From: an uncultured Bacilli bacterium
GTDB taxonomy: Bacteria; Bacillota_I; Bacilli_A; RF39; UBA660
Direction: 5' to 3'
DNA: 64,000 bases
Assembly: GCA_934096275.1 (NCBI GenBank)
Contig: CAKOLK010000002.1
Span: forward strand, 43,784 to 107,783
In this document: positions 1-60,292 of the stretch, piece after piece
Layout: each line of letters begins with the position of its first letter
Position numbering within the stretch: the stretch's first letter is position 1
The notes under the pieces: model-generated
Told to the model about the DNA's origin: nothing
Databases searched by the model: none
The model's input: the letters and a program-made list of their open reading frames with translations, nothing else
Program-made: the position numbers and the translations under genes

Positions 1-2028
1 AAAAATTTTGATGAAACTCTAGATGAGCCTGTTGTTTTACCTAGTAGATTTCCTAATATTTTAGTTAATGGGACTATGGGTATTGCTGTTGGTATGGCTA
101 CTAATATACCACCACATAATTTAGGTGAGGTTATTGATGGTTGTGTTGCTTATATTGATAATCCTGATATTGATACTTTAGGTTTAATGCAACATATAAA
201 GGGTCCCGATTTTCCTACTGGAGGAATTATTCTTGGTAATTCAGGTATTATGAGGGCTTATCAAACTGGTAAAGGTACAATTACTATTAGAAGTAAGGCA
301 GAAATAGTTGAAAATGGTAATCATTCTAGTATAGTTGTTACTGAAGTTCCATATGGTGTTAATACCATGGATTTAAAAAATAGAGTTGCTGAGCTTGTCA
401 GGGATAAGGTTATTGAAGGTATTTCTGATTATCATACTGATTTAAAGAATGGTGTTAAGATTACTATTACCTTAAAGAGAGATGCAAATCCTCAAGTTGT
501 ACTTAACAATTTATACAAACATACTAATTTTCAAATTAGCTATGGTATAACTTTGTTGATGATTGATGGAAAGACTCCTAGAACATTAGGATTAAAGGAT
601 ATTATATCTAAATATATAGATCATCAAATGGAAGTTATTATAAGAAGAACTAAGTTTGATTTAGAAAAAGATGAAAAACGTGTTCATATTTTAGAAGGTT
701 ATAAAATTGCACAAGATAATATTGATGAAGTTATTAAGATTATTAAAGCTGCTAAGAGTGATGTTGAAGCAAAAGAAAAATTAATGGATCGATTTGGTCT
801 TACTGATGTGCAAACTGATGCTATTTTAGAATTGAAATTACGTCGTTTAACTGGATTAGAACGTGAAAAGATTGAAGCTGAATTGCAAGCATTATTACTT
901 GAAATTGAGGAATTAAAATCTATTTTAGCTAGTAATGAAAAGGTTCTTGCAATTATCAAGAAGGAAATGTTAGAAATTAAGGCTAGATTTGCAGATGAAA
1001 GAAGAACTTCAATTGATATGACTGCTATTGATTATATTGAGGATGAATCGTTAATACCTGTTGAAAACATTATGATTTCTCTTACAGAAAAAGGTTATAT
1101 TAAGAGATTGTTAACAAGTACATACAGATCACAAAATCGTGGTGGTGTTGGTATTAAAGGTATGTCTACTAATGAAGAAGATTTTGTTAGTAAGTTAGTT
1201 ACATGTTCTACACATGATCATATATTATTTTTTACTAATTTTGGTAAAGTATATAGGATAAAAGGTTATGAAATACCTGAATCTAGTAGACAATCTAAGG
1301 GATTACCTATTGTTAATTTATTACCTTTGGAAAAAGGTGAAATTGTTAACTCAATTATTCCAATTAATCCTAATGATGTTGATGATAGTAAGAGTTTGAT
1401 ATTCTTTACTATGGGTGGTCTTGTTAAGAGAACTCCAATAAGTGAGTTTGAATCTATTAGAAAGAATGGTAAAATTGCTATTACTCTTAAGGAAGATGAT
1501 GAGTTGATTAGTGTTAAAATGACGTCTGGTAATGATGAAGTTATTATGGCTTCTAATAGTGGAAGAATGGTTCGTTTTGTGGAAACTGAGGTTCGTATGA
1601 TGGGTCGTAGTGCTTCTGGTGTTAAGGGTATTGATTTAACTGATTCTAAGGTAATTGGAGCAGAAATTGTAAATCCTAATGAATATATTTTAGTGGTAAC
1701 AGAAAATGGTTATGGTAAGAAAACCGATGTTGGTGAATATAGACTTACTCATCGTGGTAGTAAGGGCGTAAAAGCGCTTAATATTACTGATAAAAATGGT
1801 TTAATTATTGCATTTAAATCTGTTATTGGGGACGAAGATTTAATTATTACAACAAATAATGGTATTGTTATTAGACTTGATGTTTCTAAGATTTCTACTT
1901 TGAAGAGAAATACGCAAGGTGTTAGATTGATGAGTCTTAAAGATGGTCAGGTTGTTACTTCTGTTACTGTAACTGAAAAGGTTGACGAAGATTTAGAAAA
2001 TACCGAATCTAAAGAAAATGATGCTTAG
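1..2028 (+). CDS. gyrA: DNA gyrase subunit A, 5'-truncated by the window edge
   Basis: Frame 1 is open from base 1. Translation contains [11 protein letters not shown] and the repeated C-terminal beta-pinwheel blades. Stop TAG at 2026-2028. Confidence 0.97.
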
Positions 2029-2118
2029 GCATTATTTTTTTTATTATTTACAAAACAAATGTTTGTTATTCGCAATTTTATAGTTTTTTGTAAATTGTTA
2101 ATAAGTGTTATTTTTCAA

Positions 2119-2134
2119 TGTTTCACGTGAAACT
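2119..2134. promoter_or_regulatory. parS (ParB/Spo0J binding site), one terminal mismatch
   Basis: TGTTTCACGTGAAACT versus the B. subtilis parS consensus TGTTNCACGTGAAACA. Intergenic. Confidence 0.7.
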
Positions 2135-2331
2135 TTATGTCAATATGTTATTAAATTTTAAATAGAATTATTTTAAGTTTGATTTATTTTGTTTATATTA
2201 ACTTAATTAATTATATTTTTATTTTGCTTTTTACATAAGTTATATATTAGTTTATAGTATTTGTTTTTTAATATGTATAGTTACAATCTTAAAACTTTTA
2301 ATTTAAAATTGTTAATAAATATTTTTTTCAA

Positions 2332-2347
2332 TGTTTCACGTGAAACA
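2332..2347. promoter_or_regulatory. parS, perfect palindrome
   Basis: TGTTTCACGTGAAACA. The palindrome extends to caatg...cattg and abuts the -35 of the SRP RNA promoter. Confidence 0.8.
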
Positions 2348-2351
2348 TTGA

Positions 2352-2378
2352 TTGACTATTTTGATTTTTTGTTATAAT
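2352..2378 (+). promoter_or_regulatory. Putative sigma-A promoter of the SRP RNA
   Basis: TTGACT (2352-2357) and an extended -10, tgtTATAAT (2370-2378). The 15-nt spacer is short. Confidence 0.5.
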
Positions 2379-2384
2379 ATATAT

Positions 2385-2462
2385 TTGTGCAACGCATATG
2401 ATTGAATTAGGTCAGGATCGGAAGATAGCAGCCTTAAAGTCCTCTGTGTGTGTGCACTTTTT
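2385..2462 (+). ncRNA. ffs: Small (4.5S-type) signal recognition particle RNA
   Basis: Contains the conserved SRP domain IV sequence aGGTCAGGatCGGAAGatAGCAGCC with a GGAA tetraloop. The 5' gtgca (2387-2391) pairs with the 3' tgcac (2453-2457). A T-run follows at 2458-2465. Ends are approximate. Confidence 0.8.
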
Positions 2463-2475
2463 TTTGGAGGTTTTT

Positions 2476-2916
2476 ATGTCATTAAAGAATGATAAGTATT
2501 ACTTTAATTTAGCATTGAAGGAAGCGAAAAGGGCAACAAAATCAAATAATGTTCCGATTGGTTGTGTTATTGTTTTTAATAACAGAGTGATTGCTAAAGC
2601 ATATAATAAAAAGAATAGTAAGAACGTTTCAATTTATCATGCTGAGATATTGGCAATGATAAAAGCATGTAGATTTTTAAATACATTTATTTTAGAAGAT
2701 TGTACTATGTATGTAACTTTAGAACCTTGTAAAATGTGTATGAATGCCATAGCTGAATCACGTATTAGAAATGTTAAGTATTTGATTTTTTCTAGATATG
2801 GAAATAATTTAAAAAGCAATTATGATCGTATTAAATGTAACCAATATTCTAATAATGAATATATAGATGAATATAGTGATATGTTATCACAATTTTTTAA
2901 GAATGTAAGAAGTTAA
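2476..2916 (+). CDS. tadA: tRNA-specific adenosine deaminase
   Basis: Has the CDA-fold motifs HAE (YHAEILAM) and PCxxC (LEPCKMC). GGAGG at 2466-2470 precedes ATG 2476. The track ORF start at 2398 would run through the SRP RNA. Confidence 0.9.
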   Translation: MSLKNDKYYFNLALKEAKRATKSNNVPIGCVIVFNNRVIAKAYNKKNSKNVSIYHAEILAMIKACRFLNTFILEDCTMYVTLEPCKMCMNAIAESRIRNVKYLIFSRYGNNLKSNYDRIKCNQYSNNEYIDEYSDMLSQFFKNVRS

Positions 2917-2919
2917 CAA

Positions 2920-2935
2920 TGTTTCACGTGAAACA
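2920..2935. promoter_or_regulatory. parS, perfect palindrome
   Basis: TGTTTCACGTGAAACA, starting 4 nt after the tadA stop codon. Confidence 0.8.
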
Positions 2936-3052
2936 TTAAATAATATTACTATTTATGTTAACTAATATTAATATTCTATGACTTTTACTGTTCATATCTT
3001 TTGATTTGAATTATTAAACTATTTATTTTAAATATAAAATAGTCTTTAAATT

Positions 3053-3066
3053 ATTTCCCGGGAAAT
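3053..3066. promoter_or_regulatory. Noc-binding-site-like palindrome (NBS)
   Basis: ATTTCCCGGGAAAT is identical to the B. subtilis Noc binding consensus. It lies within the 24-nt perfect palindrome aaattatttcccgggaaataattt (3048-3071). Confidence 0.6.
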
Positions 3067-3116
3067 AATTTTGAATAATATGATATTTTTATATTGTTAA
3101 TAACTGTTTTTTTCAA

Positions 3117-3132
3117 TGTTTCACGTGAAACA
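3117..3132. promoter_or_regulatory. parS, perfect palindrome
   Basis: TGTTTCACGTGAAACA at the right end of the 85-bp repeat, copy A. Confidence 0.8.
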
Positions 3133-3257
3133 TAATTTAGTTATTAACATTTTTTGGTTAATAACTTATATATTTTATAAGTTTTGATTGCTATGGTTGA
3201 TTAATTTAATCAATTGATTACAAGAATAGATTATTAAATTATTTGTTTTAAATCCAA

Positions 3258-3273
3258 TGTTTCACGTGAAACA
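3258..3273. promoter_or_regulatory. parS, perfect palindrome with extended arms
   Basis: TGTTTCACGTGAAACA lies inside the 32-nt palindrome aaatccaatgtttcacgtgaaacattggattt (3250-3281). Confidence 0.8.
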
Positions 3274-3380
3274 TTGGATTTAACTTATTAATGAATATTA
3301 TATATTATATGTATTTAATTTTATTTTTTCTTATATGTTTAAAAAAAATATATTATGAATACAAAAATCATCAATAAATT

Positions 3381-3394
3381 ATTTCCCGGGAAAT
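3381..3394. promoter_or_regulatory. Noc-binding-site-like palindrome (NBS)
   Basis: Second identical ATTTCCCGGGAAAT, within the same 24-nt palindrome (3376-3399). Confidence 0.6.
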
Positions 3395-3444
3395 AATTTT
3401 GAATAATATGATATTTTTATATTGTTAATAACTGTTTTTTTCAA

Positions 3445-3460
3445 TGTTTCACGTGAAACA
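3445..3460. promoter_or_regulatory. parS, perfect palindrome
   Basis: TGTTTCACGTGAAACA at the right end of the 85-bp repeat, copy B. Confidence 0.8.
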
Positions 3461-3552
3461 TTGATAACAAAGCTGAAATAATTTTGATATGTCATAGACT
3501 TTATTGCACTAATTTGATACAATATTTGTAGTACTTTTTTGGGGGTGATATT

Positions 3553-5184
3553 ATTACTTATTTAGCTTTATATAGAAAATATAGACCAACTTCTTTTGAA
3601 GAGGTTGCAGGTCAAAGTTCTATTGTGAAAATACTTAAAAATTCTATTGCTAATGGTTGTGTTTCTCATGCTTATTTATTTGCGGGACCTCGAGGAACTG
3701 GCAAGACAAGTTTAGCAAAAATTATCGCTAAAACTATTAATTGTTTTAATTTAAATGGATCTAAATTTTGTAATGAATGTGATAGTTGTGTCTCTTTTAA
3801 TAATAAAAATAATCCTGATATTATTGAAATAGATGCTGCTTCAAATAATGGTGTTGAAGAAATCAGAAAGATTAGAGATAGTGTTAATTTAATGCCTAGT
3901 ATTTCAAAATATAAGGTTTATATTATTGATGAAGTACATATGTTATCTAGTGGAGCTTTTAATGCATTATTAAAAACTCTTGAAGAACCGCCAGCTCATG
4001 TTATTTTTATATTAGCGACTACAGAGTTTTATAAGATTCCAGAAACAATTATATCTAGATGTCAGTGTTTTAATTTTGAACGTATTTCAAATAATGAAAT
4101 TGTTAATAAATTACAATATATTGTTGAATGTGAAAATATTAATATTGATTATAATGTTTTGAATTTGATTGCAAAGTATAGTGATGGAGGTTTAAGAGAT
4201 TCAATTAGTATGCTGGATAAATTAGTTTCTTATTCTAATGAAATCACCGTTGATGATTATTACACTTTGAAGGGTATTGTTAATGATGAATGTCTGGTGT
4301 CGCTTACTAATTACATTTTTAATTGCGATATTCCTAATATATTGAATCTTTTAGAAGAGTTGGAAAATTCAGGCAAAGATGTTGTTGTTTTATTAGATAG
4401 TTTTATGGAACATCTTAAGTCTCGTTTGATTTCACATGATGCTAATAACTTTGATTCTATTTATAATTTAATTATTGAGTTAAATGACTTGGATATATTG
4501 TTAAAAAAGAGTAGTAATAAGAAAATTATTTTTGAGGTAGGAATTATTAAAATTGTTAATAAATTGTTTAAGAATAAAACAAATGTTTGTAATACACAAG
4601 ATATTAATGATTTTGTTGTTCAAAATAAGAAGGTTGTTTCTAATGAAGAAGATGTTGATGATGTCTCTAAAGAGGTAGTTGAAACTTATAAAATATGTTA
4701 TAATAAAGATGTCAGGATTAATAATGCTTTTGCGTTGGCTGATAAGGGTCTTTTGAATGATTTGAGAATAAAGTGGGTTTTATTTTCTGAATCTGTTTCT
4801 AGTCCTGATGATTCTTTGTTTATTTCTTATTTACTTGATAGTACTTTAAGAGTTGCAGGTAAAAATGAATTGATTTTGTCAGTTAAATATGATTCGATTC
4901 TTAAAAATGTTGATAATAATATTTCTGGTATTGAATTAGTATTTAATAATATTATGAATACTAACTATAAACTTGTTTTTATTAGTGATTCTGATTGGGA
5001 AAATCTAAAAAATGAATATATTAAAAATATTAAAAATGGAATTGTTTATAGTTATATTGATGAAGAAGCAAAAAATAGTGATGATGTTGTTTCTTCAGAT
5101 GATAATATTTCTTTTGATAATAGTAGTGATAGTGATGTTTTAGCTACTTCATTGTTTGGAGAAGATATTGTTGAATTAAAATAG
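3553..5184 (+). CDS. dnaX: DNA polymerase III subunit gamma/tau, apparent ATT start
   Basis: Has the Walker A GPRGTGKTS and the clamp-loader boxes. The conserved N-terminus YLALYRKYRPTSFEEVAGQ is in frame upstream of the first canonical start (GTG 3625). The SD GGGGGTGA lies at 3541-3548. The exact start (3550 or 3553) is uncertain. Confidence 0.9.
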   Translation: MTYLALYRKYRPTSFEEVAGQSSIVKILKNSIANGCVSHAYLFAGPRGTGKTSLAKIIAKTINCFNLNGSKFCNECDSCVSFNNKNNPDIIEIDAASNNGVEEIRKIRDSVNLMPSISKYKVYIIDEVHMLSSGAFNALLKTLEEPPAHVIFILATTEFYKIPETIISRCQCFNFERISNNEIVNKLQYIVECENINIDYNVLNLIAKYSDGGLRDSISMLDKLVSYSNEITVDDYYTLKGIVNDECLVSLTNYIFNCDIPNILNLLEELENSGKDVVVLLDSFMEHLKSRLISHDANNFDSIYNLIIELNDLDILLKKSSNKKIIFEVGIIKIVNKLFKNKTNVCNTQDINDFVVQNKKVVSNEEDVDDVSKEVVETYKICYNKDVRINNAFALADKGLLNDLRIKWVLFSESVSSPDDSLFISYLLDSTLRVAGKNELILSVKYDSILKNVDNNISGIELVFNNIMNTNYKLVFISDSDWENLKNEYIKNIKNGIVYSYIDEEAKNSDDVVSSDDNISFDNSSDSDVLATSLFGEDIVELK

Positions 5185-12394: not shown

Positions 12395-12598
12395 TAGTTA
12401 AATGTGATGAAGAAAAGTTAGGACAATTTTGAAATTGTAGAGAGTTTGTGTTTGGTGAAAACAAATATTTTAAATTGTTTGGTATGATTTTCGGAACAGG
12501 TTTTGCCCGCAGGGATGCGTTAAAAAAATAAGTTTGTAATTTTGCAAAATTAAGGTGGTACCACGGAATATTTCGTCCTTAGAGATATTTCGTTTTTT
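12395..12598 (+). promoter_or_regulatory. T-box riboswitch leader (Met specifier) with intrinsic terminator
   Basis: Stem I elements AGAGAG and GGTGAAA are present. The specifier AUG-A is at 12484-12487. The T-box sequence aaattaAGGTGGTACCACGg is at 12547-12566. The terminator pairs acggaatatttc with gagatatttcgt (12563-12593) and is followed by TTTTTT. Confidence 0.85.
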
Positions 12599-12617
12599 AT
12601 TTATTGGAGGGATGATT

Positions 12618-14147
12618 ATGAAAGAAAAATTTTATATTAGTACTGCGATTGCTTATACTTCTGCTAAACCACATATTGGAAACACATATGAAATTGTTTT
12701 GACAGATGCTATTGCTAGGTATAAGAGGCTTAAAGGATATGATGTTTATTTTCAAACTGGTACAGATGAACATGGTCAAAAAATAGAACAAAAAGCTATG
12801 GAAGCTGGTGTTTCTTGTAAGGAGTATGTTGATAATATTGCTAATGAAATTAAAAAGATTTGGGATGTTATGAATACTAGTTATGATAAGTTTATTAGAA
12901 CTACTGATCCATTGCACGTTGAAAAGGTTCAAAGGATATTTGAAAAGTTATATGATCAAGGTGATATTTATAAAGGAGAGTATAAAGGACTTTATTGTAC
13001 ACCATGTGAATCTTTTTGGACTGAAACTCAATTAGTTGATGGTAAGTGTCCTGATTGTGGTAGAGAAGTGCATGAAACTAGTGAAGAGGCTTATTTTTTT
13101 AGAATGAGTAATTATGCTTCATGGCTTGAAGATTATATTGAAAGTCATCCACATTTTATACAACCTGAATCTAGAAAAAATGAAATGATAAATAATTTTA
13201 TTAAACCAGGTCTTGAAGATTTATGTGTTTCGCGTTCGTCTTTTAAATGGGGAATACCTGTCTCATTTGATGAAGATCATGTTGTTTATGTATGGATTGA
13301 TGCTTTAACTAATTATATTACTTTTCTCGGATATGATCCAGATGGTGATTCAGATGAGATGTTTAATAGATATTGGCCATGCGATGTACATGTAATAGGT
13401 AAGGATATTTTGAGATTCCATACCATTTATTGGCCAATTATATTGAAAGCTCTTGATTTAGAACTTCCTAATAAGATATTTGGTCATCCTTGGATGCTTT
13501 TTGGAAATGATAAAATGAGTAAGAGTAGAGGTAACATCGTTTATGCTGATGATTTAGTAAATGAATTTGGAGTTGATGCTGTTAGATATTATATGCTTCA
13601 TGAGATGCCATTTTCATCAGATGGAACTTTTACTAGAGAGCTTCTTATAGATAGTATTAATTCTAACTTAGCAAATGTTTTAGGCAATTTAGTTAATAGA
13701 ACTATTGGTATGGTCAACAAGTATTTTGATGGTATTGTTGAAAATAAAAATGTAAATGAAGATATTGATAATGATTTAATTAATTTGGTTTTATCTAGTA
13801 GAGATGTAGTTGATGAGAAAATGAATAATTTGCGTGTTGCTGATTCTTTAGATGCTATTTTTGATATTTTTAGAAGATGTAACAAGTATATTGATGAAAC
13901 CATGCCATGGGGTCTTGCTAAAGATGAAAAGTGTTTGAATAGACTATCTACAGTTTTATATAATTTAGTTGAATCAATTAGATTTGGTGCTGTTTTACTT
14001 CAAGCATATATGCCAGATACTAGTGAAAAAATATTTAATCAGTTAAATACAGATATTAAAAATTTTGATAGTTTAGATCAATTTGGTTATTATAAGTCTG
14101 GTACAAAATTGAATGAGTCGTTTGTTTTATTTCAACGAATTGATTAA
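12618..14147 (+). CDS. metG: Methionine--tRNA ligase
   Basis: Has HIGN (class I HIGH), KMSKS and the CPxC zinc knuckles. GGAGG at 12606-12610 precedes ATG 12618. Confidence 0.95.
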   Translation: MKEKFYISTAIAYTSAKPHIGNTYEIVLTDAIARYKRLKGYDVYFQTGTDEHGQKIEQKAMEAGVSCKEYVDNIANEIKKIWDVMNTSYDKFIRTTDPLHVEKVQRIFEKLYDQGDIYKGEYKGLYCTPCESFWTETQLVDGKCPDCGREVHETSEEAYFFRMSNYASWLEDYIESHPHFIQPESRKNEMINNFIKPGLEDLCVSRSSFKWGIPVSFDEDHVVYVWIDALTNYITFLGYDPDGDSDEMFNRYWPCDVHVIGKDILRFHTIYWPIILKALDLELPNKIFGHPWMLFGNDKMSKSRGNIVYADDLVNEFGVDAVRYYMLHEMPFSSDGTFTRELLIDSINSNLANVLGNLVNRTIGMVNKYFDGIVENKNVNEDIDNDLINLVLSSRDVVDEKMNNLRVADSLDAIFDIFRRCNKYIDETMPWGLAKDEKCLNRLSTVLYNLVESIRFGAVLLQAYMPDTSEKIFNQLNTDIKNFDSLDQFGYYKSGTKLNESFVLFQRID

Positions 14148-41405: not shown

Positions 41406-41597
41406 TTATTTTTTTCTTTTTTGTCTATAGATTTCAAGGCGATCTAGGGTTTGTTCAGTTGGATTTTCCCATTCTTCGCAAGTTATGTTTGCATCATATA
41501 GTTCGCTTTCGTTTAATAGTCCTAAATCGTTCATTAAATAATATAGGTATTCTTGATTGATATCAATCGCGTTTTTCTTCATTTTCATTCTTATCAT
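41406..41597 (-). CDS. Small acidic hypothetical protein, start embedded in the ponA 3' end
   Basis: AAAGGAG plus 6 nt precedes ATG 41597. The coding sequence overlaps the last ~35 nt of ponA in another frame. Confidence 0.4.
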   Translation of the reverse strand: MIRMKMKKNAIDINQEYLYYLMNDLGLLNESELYDANITCEEWENPTEQTLDRLEIYRQKRKK

Positions 41598-43518
41598 TGG
41601 TTTCTCCTTTTGGTTCTGTACCATTTATATAGTACAATATTTTTTTGTGTTTACTGTTTTGATCTGCGGGTTCTCCAGTTATGGGGTCTACTAGTACTCC
41701 GATTACTGTTTTTGGTATTTTATACCATGTGCTTTCTTTGTCTTTTAAGTATGTTTCCATGGCATATGACCATGATTTTTTATTATCTGCTACTATTTTG
41801 TTTGATATGTTTTTGTTGTCATCATATCCTGTCCAAGATACCAGTACGTAGTCTTTTGTGTAACCTATTATCCATGAGTCTGTATCAGTGCTTCCACTTT
41901 TTAAGGCATATTTTTTTGTTAGGTCTGGTATCATACTATAACAAGTTGGATAAGTGTAGTCTACTAATTCTTTGTCGTATGATCCTGTTAATAGTTCGCT
42001 TATTATGAATGTAATCGCAGGGTCTAAAATTTGTTCTTCTTTGTACTTTTTTTCATATAAAACATTGCCATTTATGTCTTCGATTTTTTCTATGAAGTGT
42101 GGTGTTATTTTTTTGCCTTCATTAGCAAGTGTTGAATATGCTGTTGCTAGACTTAATGGACTGGTTTCAAATGTTCCTAGTGGAATTGATGGTAATTCTT
42201 TTATTTGTTCTTCTATTCCTACTTTTTTAAGTGTTTCTACTAATTCGTCTTGTCCTAGGAAAAGGTGTGTTTTTACTGCGAATATGTTGTCAGAATATGC
42301 TAGCGCCGCTGCTAGAGTTATTTCTTTTCCTGCATATATATTACCATAGTTTTTTGGAGAATAAGTTTTGTTATTGTCGAAGTTGAATGTTGTTTCATTA
42401 CTTAAGAATTTTGTTGTTGAAGTAAATCCTTTTTCTATTGCTCTATAGTATAAGAATGGTTTTACTGTTGAACCTGGTTGTCTTTTTGCTTGTGTTGCAC
42501 GATTGTATTGTGAGTATCCATAGTCTATTCCTCCGATTAATCCTAGTACTCCGCCGGTTTTTGAGTCCATCATGACTTTTGCTGTTTGAGAGTTTTTTTC
42601 GGTTATTTTTGTATTTGATTCTTCGAGTGCTTTTTGAGCATTTATATCGAGTGATGTGTATATTTTTATTCCTTTTGTTTCTAAATAGCTTTTTGGTATT
42701 TCTTTTAGGTTATATAGTTCTTCCATGGTTGCATCGTAGTAATATAGTAGGGAGGTTAGATTGTCTTTATTGTTGTTTTTTGCTATTTCTATTTTTTCAT
42801 TTTTGGCTCTTTGATATTCTTCTTTTGATATGTATTTATTTTTATACATTCTTTCTAATACTAGTTCTTGTCTTTTTTTTGATTTTTTAAAGTTGTCTTT
42901 TGGTGAGTAGTTTGCTGGTGAGTTTGGTATTCCTGCAAGCATTGCTGCTTGTGCTAATGTTAAGTCTTTTACATCTTTATCAAAGTAGTATTTGCTAGCA
43001 TTTGCTATTCCATACATTCCGTGGCCGTAGTTGATTGTGTTTAGGTAGCCTTCTAGTATTTCATCTTTTGTGTAATGGGTTTCTAGTTCGAATGTTATCC
43101 ACATTTCTTTCCATTTTCTTTTCCAACTTTTTGAGAAGTCTAGAAATAGATTTTTTGCATATTGTTGTGTTATAGTGGATGCTCCTTGAACTATTTGTTT
43201 TTGTTTTATGTTTTCTAACATGGCTTTTGTTATTCTTAGATAGTCAAATCCTTTATGTTTATAAAAGTTTTTATCTTCGACTGATATGGTTGCTTCTTTT
43301 ATATATGTTCCCATTTCATTTAAGTTTATCCATTCTTCATTGCCATTTCCTTGGAATACTAGTTGTTGTTTATTATCATATAGGTAGAATTTGTTTGCGC
43401 TTTTTATATCTAGTTTTGGTGTTATAATGGCATATATGTATCCAAATATGTTACATATTACGAAGAATAGAATAATATATATAAATATTTTTAATGTTAT
43501 TTTTGTTATTTTTTTCAT
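41563..43518 (-). CDS. ponA: Bifunctional class A penicillin-binding protein (glycosyltransferase + transpeptidase)
   Basis: GT51 motifs (EDKNFYKHKGFD, GASTITQQ), and transpeptidase motifs SxxK (PGSTVKP), SDN (YSDN) and KSG (LKSGST). Confidence 0.93.
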   Translation of the reverse strand: MKKITKITLKIFIYIILFFVICNIFGYIYAIITPKLDIKSANKFYLYDNKQQLVFQGNGNEEWINLNEMGTYIKEATISVEDKNFYKHKGFDYLRITKAMLENIKQKQIVQGASTITQQYAKNLFLDFSKSWKRKWKEMWITFELETHYTKDEILEGYLNTINYGHGMYGIANASKYYFDKDVKDLTLAQAAMLAGIPNSPANYSPKDNFKKSKKRQELVLERMYKNKYISKEEYQRAKNEKIEIAKNNNKDNLTSLLYYYDATMEELYNLKEIPKSYLETKGIKIYTSLDINAQKALEESNTKITEKNSQTAKVMMDSKTGGVLGLIGGIDYGYSQYNRATQAKRQPGSTVKPFLYYRAIEKGFTSTTKFLSNETTFNFDNNKTYSPKNYGNIYAGKEITLAAALAYSDNIFAVKTHLFLGQDELVETLKKVGIEEQIKELPSIPLGTFETSPLSLATAYSTLANEGKKITPHFIEKIEDINGNVLYEKKYKEEQILDPAITFIISELLTGSYDKELVDYTYPTCYSMIPDLTKKYALKSGSTDTDSWIIGYTKDYVLVSWTGYDDNKNISNKIVADNKKSWSYAMETYLKDKESTWYKIPKTVIGVLVDPITGEPADQNSKHKKILYYINGTEPKGETNDKNENEEKRD

Positions 43519-60135: not shown

Positions 60136-60174
60136 TATAAAATAGTGTATAATATTATTGAATTTGATTTTTAA

Positions 60175-60268
60175 GTGCCAAAGACAGTAGGTGTTTTAGT
60201 AAATCCTACCGAGGACTTTTATAAAGTATCTGGAGTCTTTGCATATAAAGACTCTTTTATTTAGGCAC
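60175..60268 (+). promoter_or_regulatory. Ribosomal protein L10(L12)4 leader
   Basis: The closing helix gtgcc/ggcac encloses cagtagg...cctaccgagg. An attenuator hairpin gagtcttt/aaagactc is followed by TTTTATTT (60233-60262). Confidence 0.6.
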
Positions 60269-60292
60269 GTAAATATAATAAGGAGGTGTCTT

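Follow-up and report, generated by a model that had tools for sequence, protein, structure and literature searches.

Alternating parS and Noc-binding-site palindromes at the gyrA-tadA-dnaX locus: a candidate composite centromere array for two ParB-family clamps in uncultured gut Bacilli

ParB and Noc are textbook paralogues that diverged in DNA specificity, with few origin-proximal parS sites for ParB and many scattered Noc-binding sites (NBS) for Noc. Why, then, does an 85-bp segment of DNA that carries both types of site occur twice in the spacer between tadA and dnaX of an uncultured Bacilli bacterium? The segment lies in a 64-kb stretch of contig CAKOLK010000002.1 (hereafter the window), and a preliminary description of this stretch had pointed to the duplicated pair of palindromes as a module. 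After analysis of the window and of the corresponding loci of its relatives, we consider it probable, with room for doubt, that the 85-bp module is one repeat of a composite centromere array near the origin, along which two paralogous cytidine triphosphate (CTP)-switch clamps would have alternating nucleation sites.

Positions 3048-3132 and 3376-3460 were direct repeats with 100% identity across 85 bp, and these were enclosed by a wider direct repeat of 98 nt (3036-3133 and 3364-3461) with 96% identity. The 5' end of the 85-bp repeat was the perfect 24-nt palindrome AAATTATTTCCCGGGAAATAATTT in both copies, and all 16 positions of its core TATTTCCCGGGAAATA were identical to the NBS core in oligonucleotide GGATATTTCCCGGGAAATATCC of Jalal et al. 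2021 (PMC8429893). The 3' end of both copies was TGTTTCACGTGAAACA, the parS core in oligonucleotide GGATGTTTCACGTGAAACATCC of the same study, and the centres of NBS and parS were 65 bp apart in each repeat. The repeats, both palindromes, their distance and their location between tadA (2476-2916) and dnaX (from about 3553) were as the preliminary description had given them, and so was a second short repeat pair, 3010-3033 and 3230-3253, which was identical at 22 of 24 positions.

The scan of the window with the NBS pattern ATTTCCCGGGAAAT / TATTTCCCGGGAAATA returned two perfect 16-mers; with up to two mismatches allowed, 2 sites were observed against 0.00 expected (100 shuffles), which bears out the earlier statement that such a GC-cored palindrome is improbable by chance. 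The 16-bp parS palindrome (pattern TGTTNCACGTGNAACA, up to three mismatches) was found 6 times against 0.40 expected, and neither motif can be put down to chance. Five of these parS were perfect and one had a single mismatch, and all were located within 2119-3460. Neither NBS nor parS was found by these mismatch scans in the remaining 62 kb of the window. The array thus comprised 6 parS and 2 NBS in 1.35 kb, from gyrA across the gene for the small signal recognition particle (SRP) RNA and tadA to dnaX. Four perfect parS were located in the tadA-dnaX spacer (starting at 2920, 3117, 3258 and 3445), and two parS, at 2119 (one mismatch) and 2332, in the spacer between gyrA and the SRP RNA. Measured from start to start, the layout was parS-132-NBS-65-parS-141-parS-122-NBS-65-parS. 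Since extra parS flank each NBS in the spacer, the repeated unit is a parS-NBS-parS triplet; the pairing of NBS with parS proposed earlier was real, but the pair is part of this triplet inside a larger parS cluster.

Relatives of the window genome were reached through DnaX homologues, and their loci (numbered with the prefix L) were then read for NBS and parS. The DnaX homologues in gut metagenome assemblies were 77-98% identical and all others about 52% identical, and the TadA and RecR proteins of the window had no exact match in the protein collection. Furthermore, GTDB species representatives were scanned with a DnaA fragment, which gave 24 loci labelled 'uncultured Bacilli bacterium' (metagenome-assembled genomes, MAGs, from Hadza gut), 'uncultured Mycoplasma sp.', 'Mycoplasma sp. 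CAG:611' or 'uncultured Tenericutes bacterium'. A homologue search with a C-terminal piece of DnaA gave nothing but truncated DnaA proteins from contig ends, and the region upstream of dnaA was reached via MnmE and via the GTDB loci.

In L001-L003 and L010-L013, whose DnaX was 76-92% identical to that of the window, each locus carried two or three NBS. Every NBS of L001-L003 was followed by a parS at 60-68 bp from centre to centre, in 2-3 copies per genome, and solo parS sites were also present. L010, L011 and L012, with GyrA 97-99% identical to that of the window, had two or three modules with a spacing of 61-66 bp. The spacing was looser, at 51 and 187 bp, in L013, the most distant of these loci (GyrA 92% identical). 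The basic unit in the genus was parS, about 90-130 bp, NBS, 60-68 bp, parS. When 16 module copies from seven genomes were aligned, four invariant or near-invariant blocks were found, namely AATACAAAAA, which precedes the NBS by about 12 nt, the 24-nt NBS palindrome, AAATTGTTAATAA and ATGTTTCACGTGAAACAT, and the DNA between them diverged freely. Because the blocks were kept while the intervening DNA diverged, we take the sites to be under constraint and not only recently duplicated.

These results also bear on the idea that the module is a mobile or selfish repeat of the miniature inverted-repeat transposable element (MITE) or repetitive extragenic palindromic (REP) type, which the preliminary description had itself named as grounds for refutation. 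The module is indeed a repeated unit with palindromic ends, and it lies in an AT-rich spacer. However, within the 64 kb copies were found only at 2094-3461, the chromosomal position was the same across genera, no plasmid or phage match and no Rfam match were found, and no terminal inverted repeats spanned the unit. We regard a mobile element as barely credible.

Four of the six parS of the window were preceded, at a distance of 13-14 nt, by the block ATTGTTAATAA, whose core GTTAATAAC forms an inverted repeat (4-1-4) and which was kept in the relatives. The combination of this block and parS also marked the solo parS sites downstream of gyrA; an arrangement like that at 2094-2134 was present 3' of gyrA in L002, L003, L004 and L010-L012. 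The window held 14 copies of the block against 0.6 expected, and 10 of the 14 were unlinked to parS. As regards a genome-wide signal, several of the parS-free copies clearly encode I-V-N-K/N and would thus reflect codon usage, and only the four parS-linked copies are part of the array. A DnaA box was also rejected, as TTATTAACA has two mismatches to TTATCCACA. A promoter scan of positions 2000-3700 gave 18 promoter-like matches against 18.3 expected, a chance-level number, and we ascribe no promoter role to the blocks. An Rfam scan at permissive E-values returned the SRP RNA only, all other matches having E > 0.2 and being far under their gathering scores.

The preliminary description had called for a search for a second ParB-family protein and had named its absence, like a MITE/REP origin of the palindrome, as grounds for refutation; both points were checked, neither spoke against the proposed reading, and the reading is supported. 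Such a gene was present directly after rsmG in L009, L011, L012 and L013, that is, in all same-genus MAG contigs that reach this locus, and in L011-L013 it was followed by parA up to the edge of the locus. The contig of L009 ends within tadA, and L011-L013 carried the module array on the same 20-kb stretch. In L011 (GyrA 99.4% and DnaX N-terminus 90% identical to those of the window), parA, the paralogue, rsmG, dnaA, gyrA and three NBS-parS modules were all encoded on 20 kb. The full order rsmG-noc-soj-spo0J was found in L006, L007, L008, L017 and L020. The Noc-like genes were located at L011:788-2026(-), L012:748-2016(-), L013:690-1955(-), L006:14507-15751 and L007:14498-15673.

Among solved structures, the best relatives of the Noc-like protein were those of Noc (7NG0, 7NFU and 7OL9; E 3e-64 to 2e-56), compared with 9e-51 for Spo0J 6SDK. 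On the family model TIGR04285 (nucleoid_noc) it scored 298-303 bits, against 241-244 bits for the ParB of the clade and under the NCBI curated cut-off of 315. Pfam assigned ParB_N and HTH_ParB domains. The recognition region read GKSQSTVANKLRLLN...ISERHARSLL, and the equivalents of Q173, K179 and R201 were present, which are three of the four NBS-specificity positions; according to Jalal et al. 2020, who defined these positions, one permissive K suffices. The ParB of the clade carried the parS-type R...G (GKSRS...LGHA or MGHA in L006 and L007), and a ParB was also encoded in L017. Two sister-lineage loci extended as far as parB, and in both of them no parS was found within this gene or close to it. 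The CTP motifs PNRFQPR, GERRxRA (as GERRYRAS) and ENLQR were intact in the Noc-like protein, and its C-terminus held the conserved block YDLRFAINNVRQAVQNTEKFGF, which we assume mediates dimerisation.

With a protein of this type encoded on the same 20-kb stretch as the array in L011-L013, the alternative given in the preliminary description, an unrelated regulator, can be weighed. The palindrome could be bound by an unrelated regulator, or be the target of a restriction-modification system (CCCGGG), and resemble NBS only by coincidence; CCCGGG is a common restriction site, and the palindrome is longer here (22-24 nt conserved) than the 14-16 bp of the Bacillus NBS. But all 16 positions agree with the canonical NBS, the co-encoded paralogue has NBS-type specificity residues, restriction-modification pressure would deplete such a site instead of conserving it, and no candidate regulator gene was linked to the palindrome. 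This explanation is very improbable in our judgement.

In the alignment, the first residues of the Noc-like protein, MNL(E/D)KE..., fell on residue 26-27 of Noc, and a stop codon was present 6-30 codons upstream, with a promoter and a ribosome-binding site (RBS) in between. Because the protein starts at this point, with a stop codon close upstream, it does not have the amphipathic membrane-targeting helix of the Noc N-terminus (residues 1-10/15). In the same scan, Noc genes from other taxa, which served as controls, showed N-termini of the MKFPFL-, MKIPFF- or MALFGL- type. Adams et al. 2015 found the membrane helix in all Noc homologues that they examined, and it was required for function. Between the DNA-binding domain and the C-terminal block, the Noc-like protein had a low-complexity linker of roughly 150-250 amino acids (aa), rich in Q, N, P and E. 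One short motif of the linker, NIFDxLR, was conserved; it could serve as a peptide for interactions or be an amphipathic helix that has moved. The missing helix and the linker set the protein apart from every Noc described so far.

The same principle was found with other spacings in the wider clade, in more distant AT-rich gut Bacilli and at the same locus. With p for parS and N for NBS, Mycoplasma sp. CAG:611 (L023) had three copies of p-59-N-95-p and L039 three copies of p-58-N-61-p, L071 had an alternating N-58-p-65 array, L069 had p-37-N-25-p, and L087 had five copies of p-28-N, a design that was seen with a spacing of 28-29 bp. L048 and L150 carried 7-8 NBS in regular arrays, and in L028 and L018 NBS were located among 5-9 parS. 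In L004/L015, five parS of the variant TGTTCCACGTGGAACA were found around tadA, and the sole NBS was inside dnaX. L017 had one NBS just before dnaX and 11 parS in tandem. The latter, at L017:18094-18469 (CAKONZ010000005.1), were parS-like sites with a perfect tandem period of 36 bp directly 3' of gyrA, and had the look of an iterated plasmid-style centromere. The NBS-parS spacing, described earlier as fixed, was thus constant within a lineage (60-68 bp in the closest relatives) but differed between lineages.

Furthermore, a metagenome scan with the 20-mer ATTATTTCCCGGGAAATAAT gave at least 120 stretches, of which 112 of low GC were used. Among the matches listed, 67 of the 112 stretches carried gyrA, tadA or dnaX, and at least 39% of the perfect NBS (80 of 205) had a parS within 150 bp, proportions that are biased towards the clade since the 20-mer is typical of its extended NBS. 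Among the same matches, 23 of the remaining NBS were inside dnaX, 40 were at the locus with no parS close by, and 62 had another or an unknown context. The intragenic NBS of dnaX were perfect 16-mers that kept the extended AT flanks, for example at L004:20128 (= L015:20191), L042:4007, L065:5575 and L149:7721, so that in many sister lineages a palindrome of a protein-binding type is conserved inside a coding region.

Several of these observations weigh against a composite array, and some of them would suit another account, in which ordinary NBS of a Bacillus-style occlusion system, scattered over the origin-proximal chromosome and by chance also present in its largest intergenic spacers, hitch-hiked and were co-amplified with the parS unit, so that the pairing has no function. 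The two modules of the window arose by one recent duplication event, with 85 bp identical within a mosaic of repeats, and they are consequently not independent evidence. NBS were found inside dnaX in at least 23 cases, at about residue 335-375, and further NBS with no parS were found 13-25 kb from the array in three same-contig pairs of other lineages; the pairing is therefore frequent and not obligatory. The spacing varied between lineages, from about 25 to 100 bp, and was not helically phased, which argues against a strict stereospecific contact between ParB and Noc. For the protein, the score on TIGR04285 was just under the curated threshold, the residue at the equivalent of position 184 was N and not K, the amphipathic-looking NIFDxLR could still mediate membrane binding, and the noc and parB of the window genome itself, which would lie outside the 64 kb, are placed by analogy with the same-genus MAGs. 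The clade bias of the 20-mer is a further caution.

A functionless pairing, although plausible for the duplication in the window itself, is nevertheless unlikely. NBS and parS were paired in many lineages, with units amplified independently and with different spacings, and both palindromes were perfect while the DNA between them diverged. Further points against hitch-hiking are the share of sampled NBS close to parS given above, the location of most sampled NBS at this locus and the lack of NBS from the remaining 62 kb of the window, and the Noc-like protein does not have the helix needed for classical occlusion.

The NBS inside dnaX raise one more explanation, that the Noc-like protein acts as a KorB-like silencing clamp and that the NBS are operators for dnaX-ybaB-recR and/or tadA, perhaps coupling the supply of clamp loader to the cell cycle. 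The likely dnaX promoter of the window follows the NBS at a distance of 100-500 bp, NBS are intragenic in dnaX of sister lineages, KorB is among the solved relatives of the Noc-like protein, and the unusual apparent ATT start codon of dnaX hints at special regulation. However, the position of NBS relative to the promoter varied widely, including sites about 1 kb into dnaX, and NBS were also found between gyrA and tadA (L002:8642 and L023:18145). The consistent partner of NBS was parS and not a promoter element, and the number of promoter-like matches in the region was at chance level. An operator function is distinctly improbable, more so than hitch-hiking.

The composite array is described as origin-proximal on the basis of synteny. 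The window begins within gyrA, which ends at 2028, and continues with the small SRP RNA, tadA, dnaX, ybaB, recR, holB, ricT, pth, mfd and spoVT. In syntenic relatives, the end of dnaA was 8.5-9.5 kb upstream of the tadA-dnaX spacer, so that the array would lie about 9 kb to the right of oriC/dnaA. The earlier placement of the site next to the origin is supported to this extent, as a deduction from gene order. The window had a G+C content of 27%, an unusually strong GC skew of 0.25-0.46 in 2-kb windows and a cumulative GC skew that climbed monotonically, and nearly all of its 62 open reading frames (ORFs) of at least 120 aa were on the plus strand. The only large minus-strand ORF was at 41563-43518, where the AT skew also changed.

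Some further features of the origin region were observed in the relatives. In sister lineages, four genes for proteins of about 563, 54, 142 and 496 aa, of which the 496-aa protein is an AAA ATPase, were inserted between rpmH and dnaA, at the expected oriC region (L004:5023-8805, L006:3989-7771 and L007:1218-5015); this insertion could be a defence or mobile island. The dnaA of L004 was split into ORFs of 249 aa and 169 aa. A ComK-family gene was located between dnaN and recF in the clade (L002:1892-2314, L003:1989-2444 and L004:11912-12367), a position that yaaA occupies in B. subtilis.

We infer from the sites and the proteins how such a composite array might work. Each parS TGTTTCACGTGAAACA would be a loading site of the chromosomal ParB/Spo0J, and each GC-cored palindrome, with the core TATTTCCCGGGAAATA and a full length of 24 nt in this genus, would be a loading site of the rsmG-adjacent Noc-family paralogue. 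Tandem amplification has given 2-3 copies of the parS-NBS-parS unit in the tadA-dnaX spacer, and solo parS sites are located between gyrA and the SRP RNA. ParB and Noc would nucleate no more than about 200 bp apart. Both clamps would then slide or spread over the same few kilobases and form a nucleoprotein complex of mixed composition, about 9 kb rightward of oriC. Binding of each protein to its own palindrome, joint occupancy and the consequences downstream are predictions from this arrangement. Possible roles of Noc would be the shaping or limiting of ParB spreading, SMC loading, origin positioning, or a control of replication like that by S. aureus Noc.

That the membrane helix is missing and that the sites are concentrated in the parS cluster suggests a non-classical function, and the Noc-like protein may not act in nucleoid occlusion as classically understood. 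A role tied to the centromere or origin complex appears more likely than membrane-tethered occlusion of the bulk chromosome. Since S. aureus Noc complexes spread over 8-10 kb around a site and the array would be about 9 kb from dnaA, a link to the control of initiation, as reported for S. aureus Noc, is conceivable. It is a more tentative suggestion, which we would place well short of probable, that Noc was repurposed in this clade, having lost its anchor and gained a long disordered linker while its sites were gathered into the parS cluster. It would then belong to a two-clamp, CTP-dependent partition or origin complex and influence the spreading of ParB, the loading of SMC, the positioning of the origin or the initiation of replication, and not occlude division over the bulk nucleoid.

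The coordinates of the array and its borders are given in Table 1. The 36-nt palindrome around the parS at 3258 was scored as a hairpin in a terminator scan. In dnaX of the genus (window 3540-3560; L001-L003 and L010-L013), no ATG, GTG or TTG was found at the conserved N-terminus; at the position of the ATG of sister lineages there was an ATT (ATC in L013), about 5 nt past the RBS GGGGGTGA. Gene callers consequently truncate the protein, for example to a 519-aa ORF from the GTG at 3625. The ATT or ATC may be a conserved non-canonical start codon. Further away, a T-box leader (12398-12583) was found upstream of a 530-aa ORF (12555-14147), whose syntenic gene in relatives matches tRNA-synthetase Pfam families, and an L10 leader (60160-60269) upstream of rplJ; both are ordinary.

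Table 1. Features of the parS/NBS array and its borders in the window (an empty strand cell marks a feature given with no strand)
Feature	Position	Strand	Remark
3' part of gyrA	76..2028	+	Left border of array; NCBIfam GyrA, 799 bits
Block ATTGTTAATAA (2094-2104), 14 nt, one-mismatch parS TGTTTCACGTGAAACT (2119-2134)	2094..2134		Motif scan
Block ATTGTTAATAA (2308-2318), 13 nt, perfect parS (2332-2347)	2308..2347		Immediately 5' of SRP RNA promoter
Small SRP RNA	2376..2473	+	Rfam RF00169, 57.1 bits
tadA	2476..2916	+	NCBIfam TadA match
Perfect parS, left parS of first parS-NBS-parS unit	2920..2935		4 nt past tadA stop codon
Short repeat, copy 1	3010..3033	+	22/24 identical to 3230-3253
Direct repeat, copy 1, 98 nt	3036..3133	+	3048-3132 is the identical part
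24-nt perfect palindrome, NBS core 3052-3067	3048..3071		Invariant in 16 module copies, 7 genomes
Block ATTGTTAATAA between NBS and parS	3093..3103	+	Nearly invariant in module alignment
Perfect parS, centre 65 bp from NBS centre	3117..3132		Motif scan
Short repeat, copy 2	3230..3253	+	22/24 identical to 3010-3033
36-nt perfect palindrome TTAAATCCAATGTTTCACGTGAAACATTGGATTTAA enclosing perfect parS (3258-3273)	3248..3283		Left parS of second unit
Direct repeat, copy 2	3364..3461	+	Pair of 3036-3133
24-nt perfect palindrome, NBS core 3380-3395	3376..3399		Repeat and motif scans
Block ATTGTTAATAA	3421..3431	+	Motif scan, module alignment
Perfect parS, centre 65 bp from NBS centre	3445..3460		Motif scan
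Likely dnaX promoter (TAGACT, 17 nt, TG-n-TACAAT)	3495..3523	+	Consensus match only; kept in genus; 3' of last parS
dnaX, apparent ATT start codon	3553..5184	+	Right border of array

While parS, NBS, ParB and Noc are all known already, two things appear to be new, namely the conserved gyrA-tadA-dnaX arrays in which NBS and parS alternate regularly throughout a clade of uncultured gut Bacilli, and the accompanying Noc lineage with a long linker and no membrane-targeting helix. The preliminary description had taken the module to be undescribed as a unit; no coupling of NBS and parS was reported in the literature searched, a search that was incomplete, so that an earlier description is possible. 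The sites of ParB and Noc are here reunited in regular arrays in an entire clade, and its Noc does not have the helix by which the known mechanism of Noc is defined. Should both clamps load side by side, the array would be a natural system for the study of heterologous CTP clamps on one DNA, including their collision, roadblocks and co-condensation. If the proposed reading is true, it would also show a function of Noc apart from membrane tethering, bear on the unexplained control of replication by S. aureus Noc and give insight into the centromere organisation of small-genome uncultured gut Firmicutes. The orthogonal and naturally co-evolved pairs of sites could further serve the DNA-labelling tools that already use ParB-parS and Noc-NBS.

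Compared with known systems, the locus most resembles the Noc-NBS system of B. subtilis and S. aureus, with which it shares the identical 16-bp site and the position of the paralogue between rsmG and parA/soj; the clade protein has the Noc-type Q, K and R and the CTP motifs, and its closest structures are those of Noc. It differs in the missing membrane-targeting helix, the linker of roughly 150-250 aa, the palindrome of 22-24 nt and the crowding of its sites into the parS cluster, whereas known NBS are scattered over the origin-proximal half to two-thirds of the chromosome, with about 70 sites in B. subtilis and 41 loci in S. aureus. Like chromosomal ParABS systems, the clade has multiple canonical parS within about 10 kb of oriC and an rsmG-noc-parA-parB locus, but its parS are tightly packed (6 in 1.35 kb, and 11 with a 36-bp period in L017) and interleaved with the predicted sites of a second ParB-family protein. 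KorB-OB of plasmid RK2 is also a ParB-family CTP clamp with its own palindromic operator distinct from parS, and KorB is a structural relative (8QA8); however, KorB is plasmid-borne and acts with KorA as a long-range repressor at promoters, whereas the sites described here pair with parS. Iterated plasmid centromeres likewise consist of tandem, regularly spaced sites that arose by unit amplification. To our knowledge, plasmid centromere arrays repeat one type of site for one protein, whereas the array described here is chromosomal and carries two types of site for two predicted paralogous clamps.

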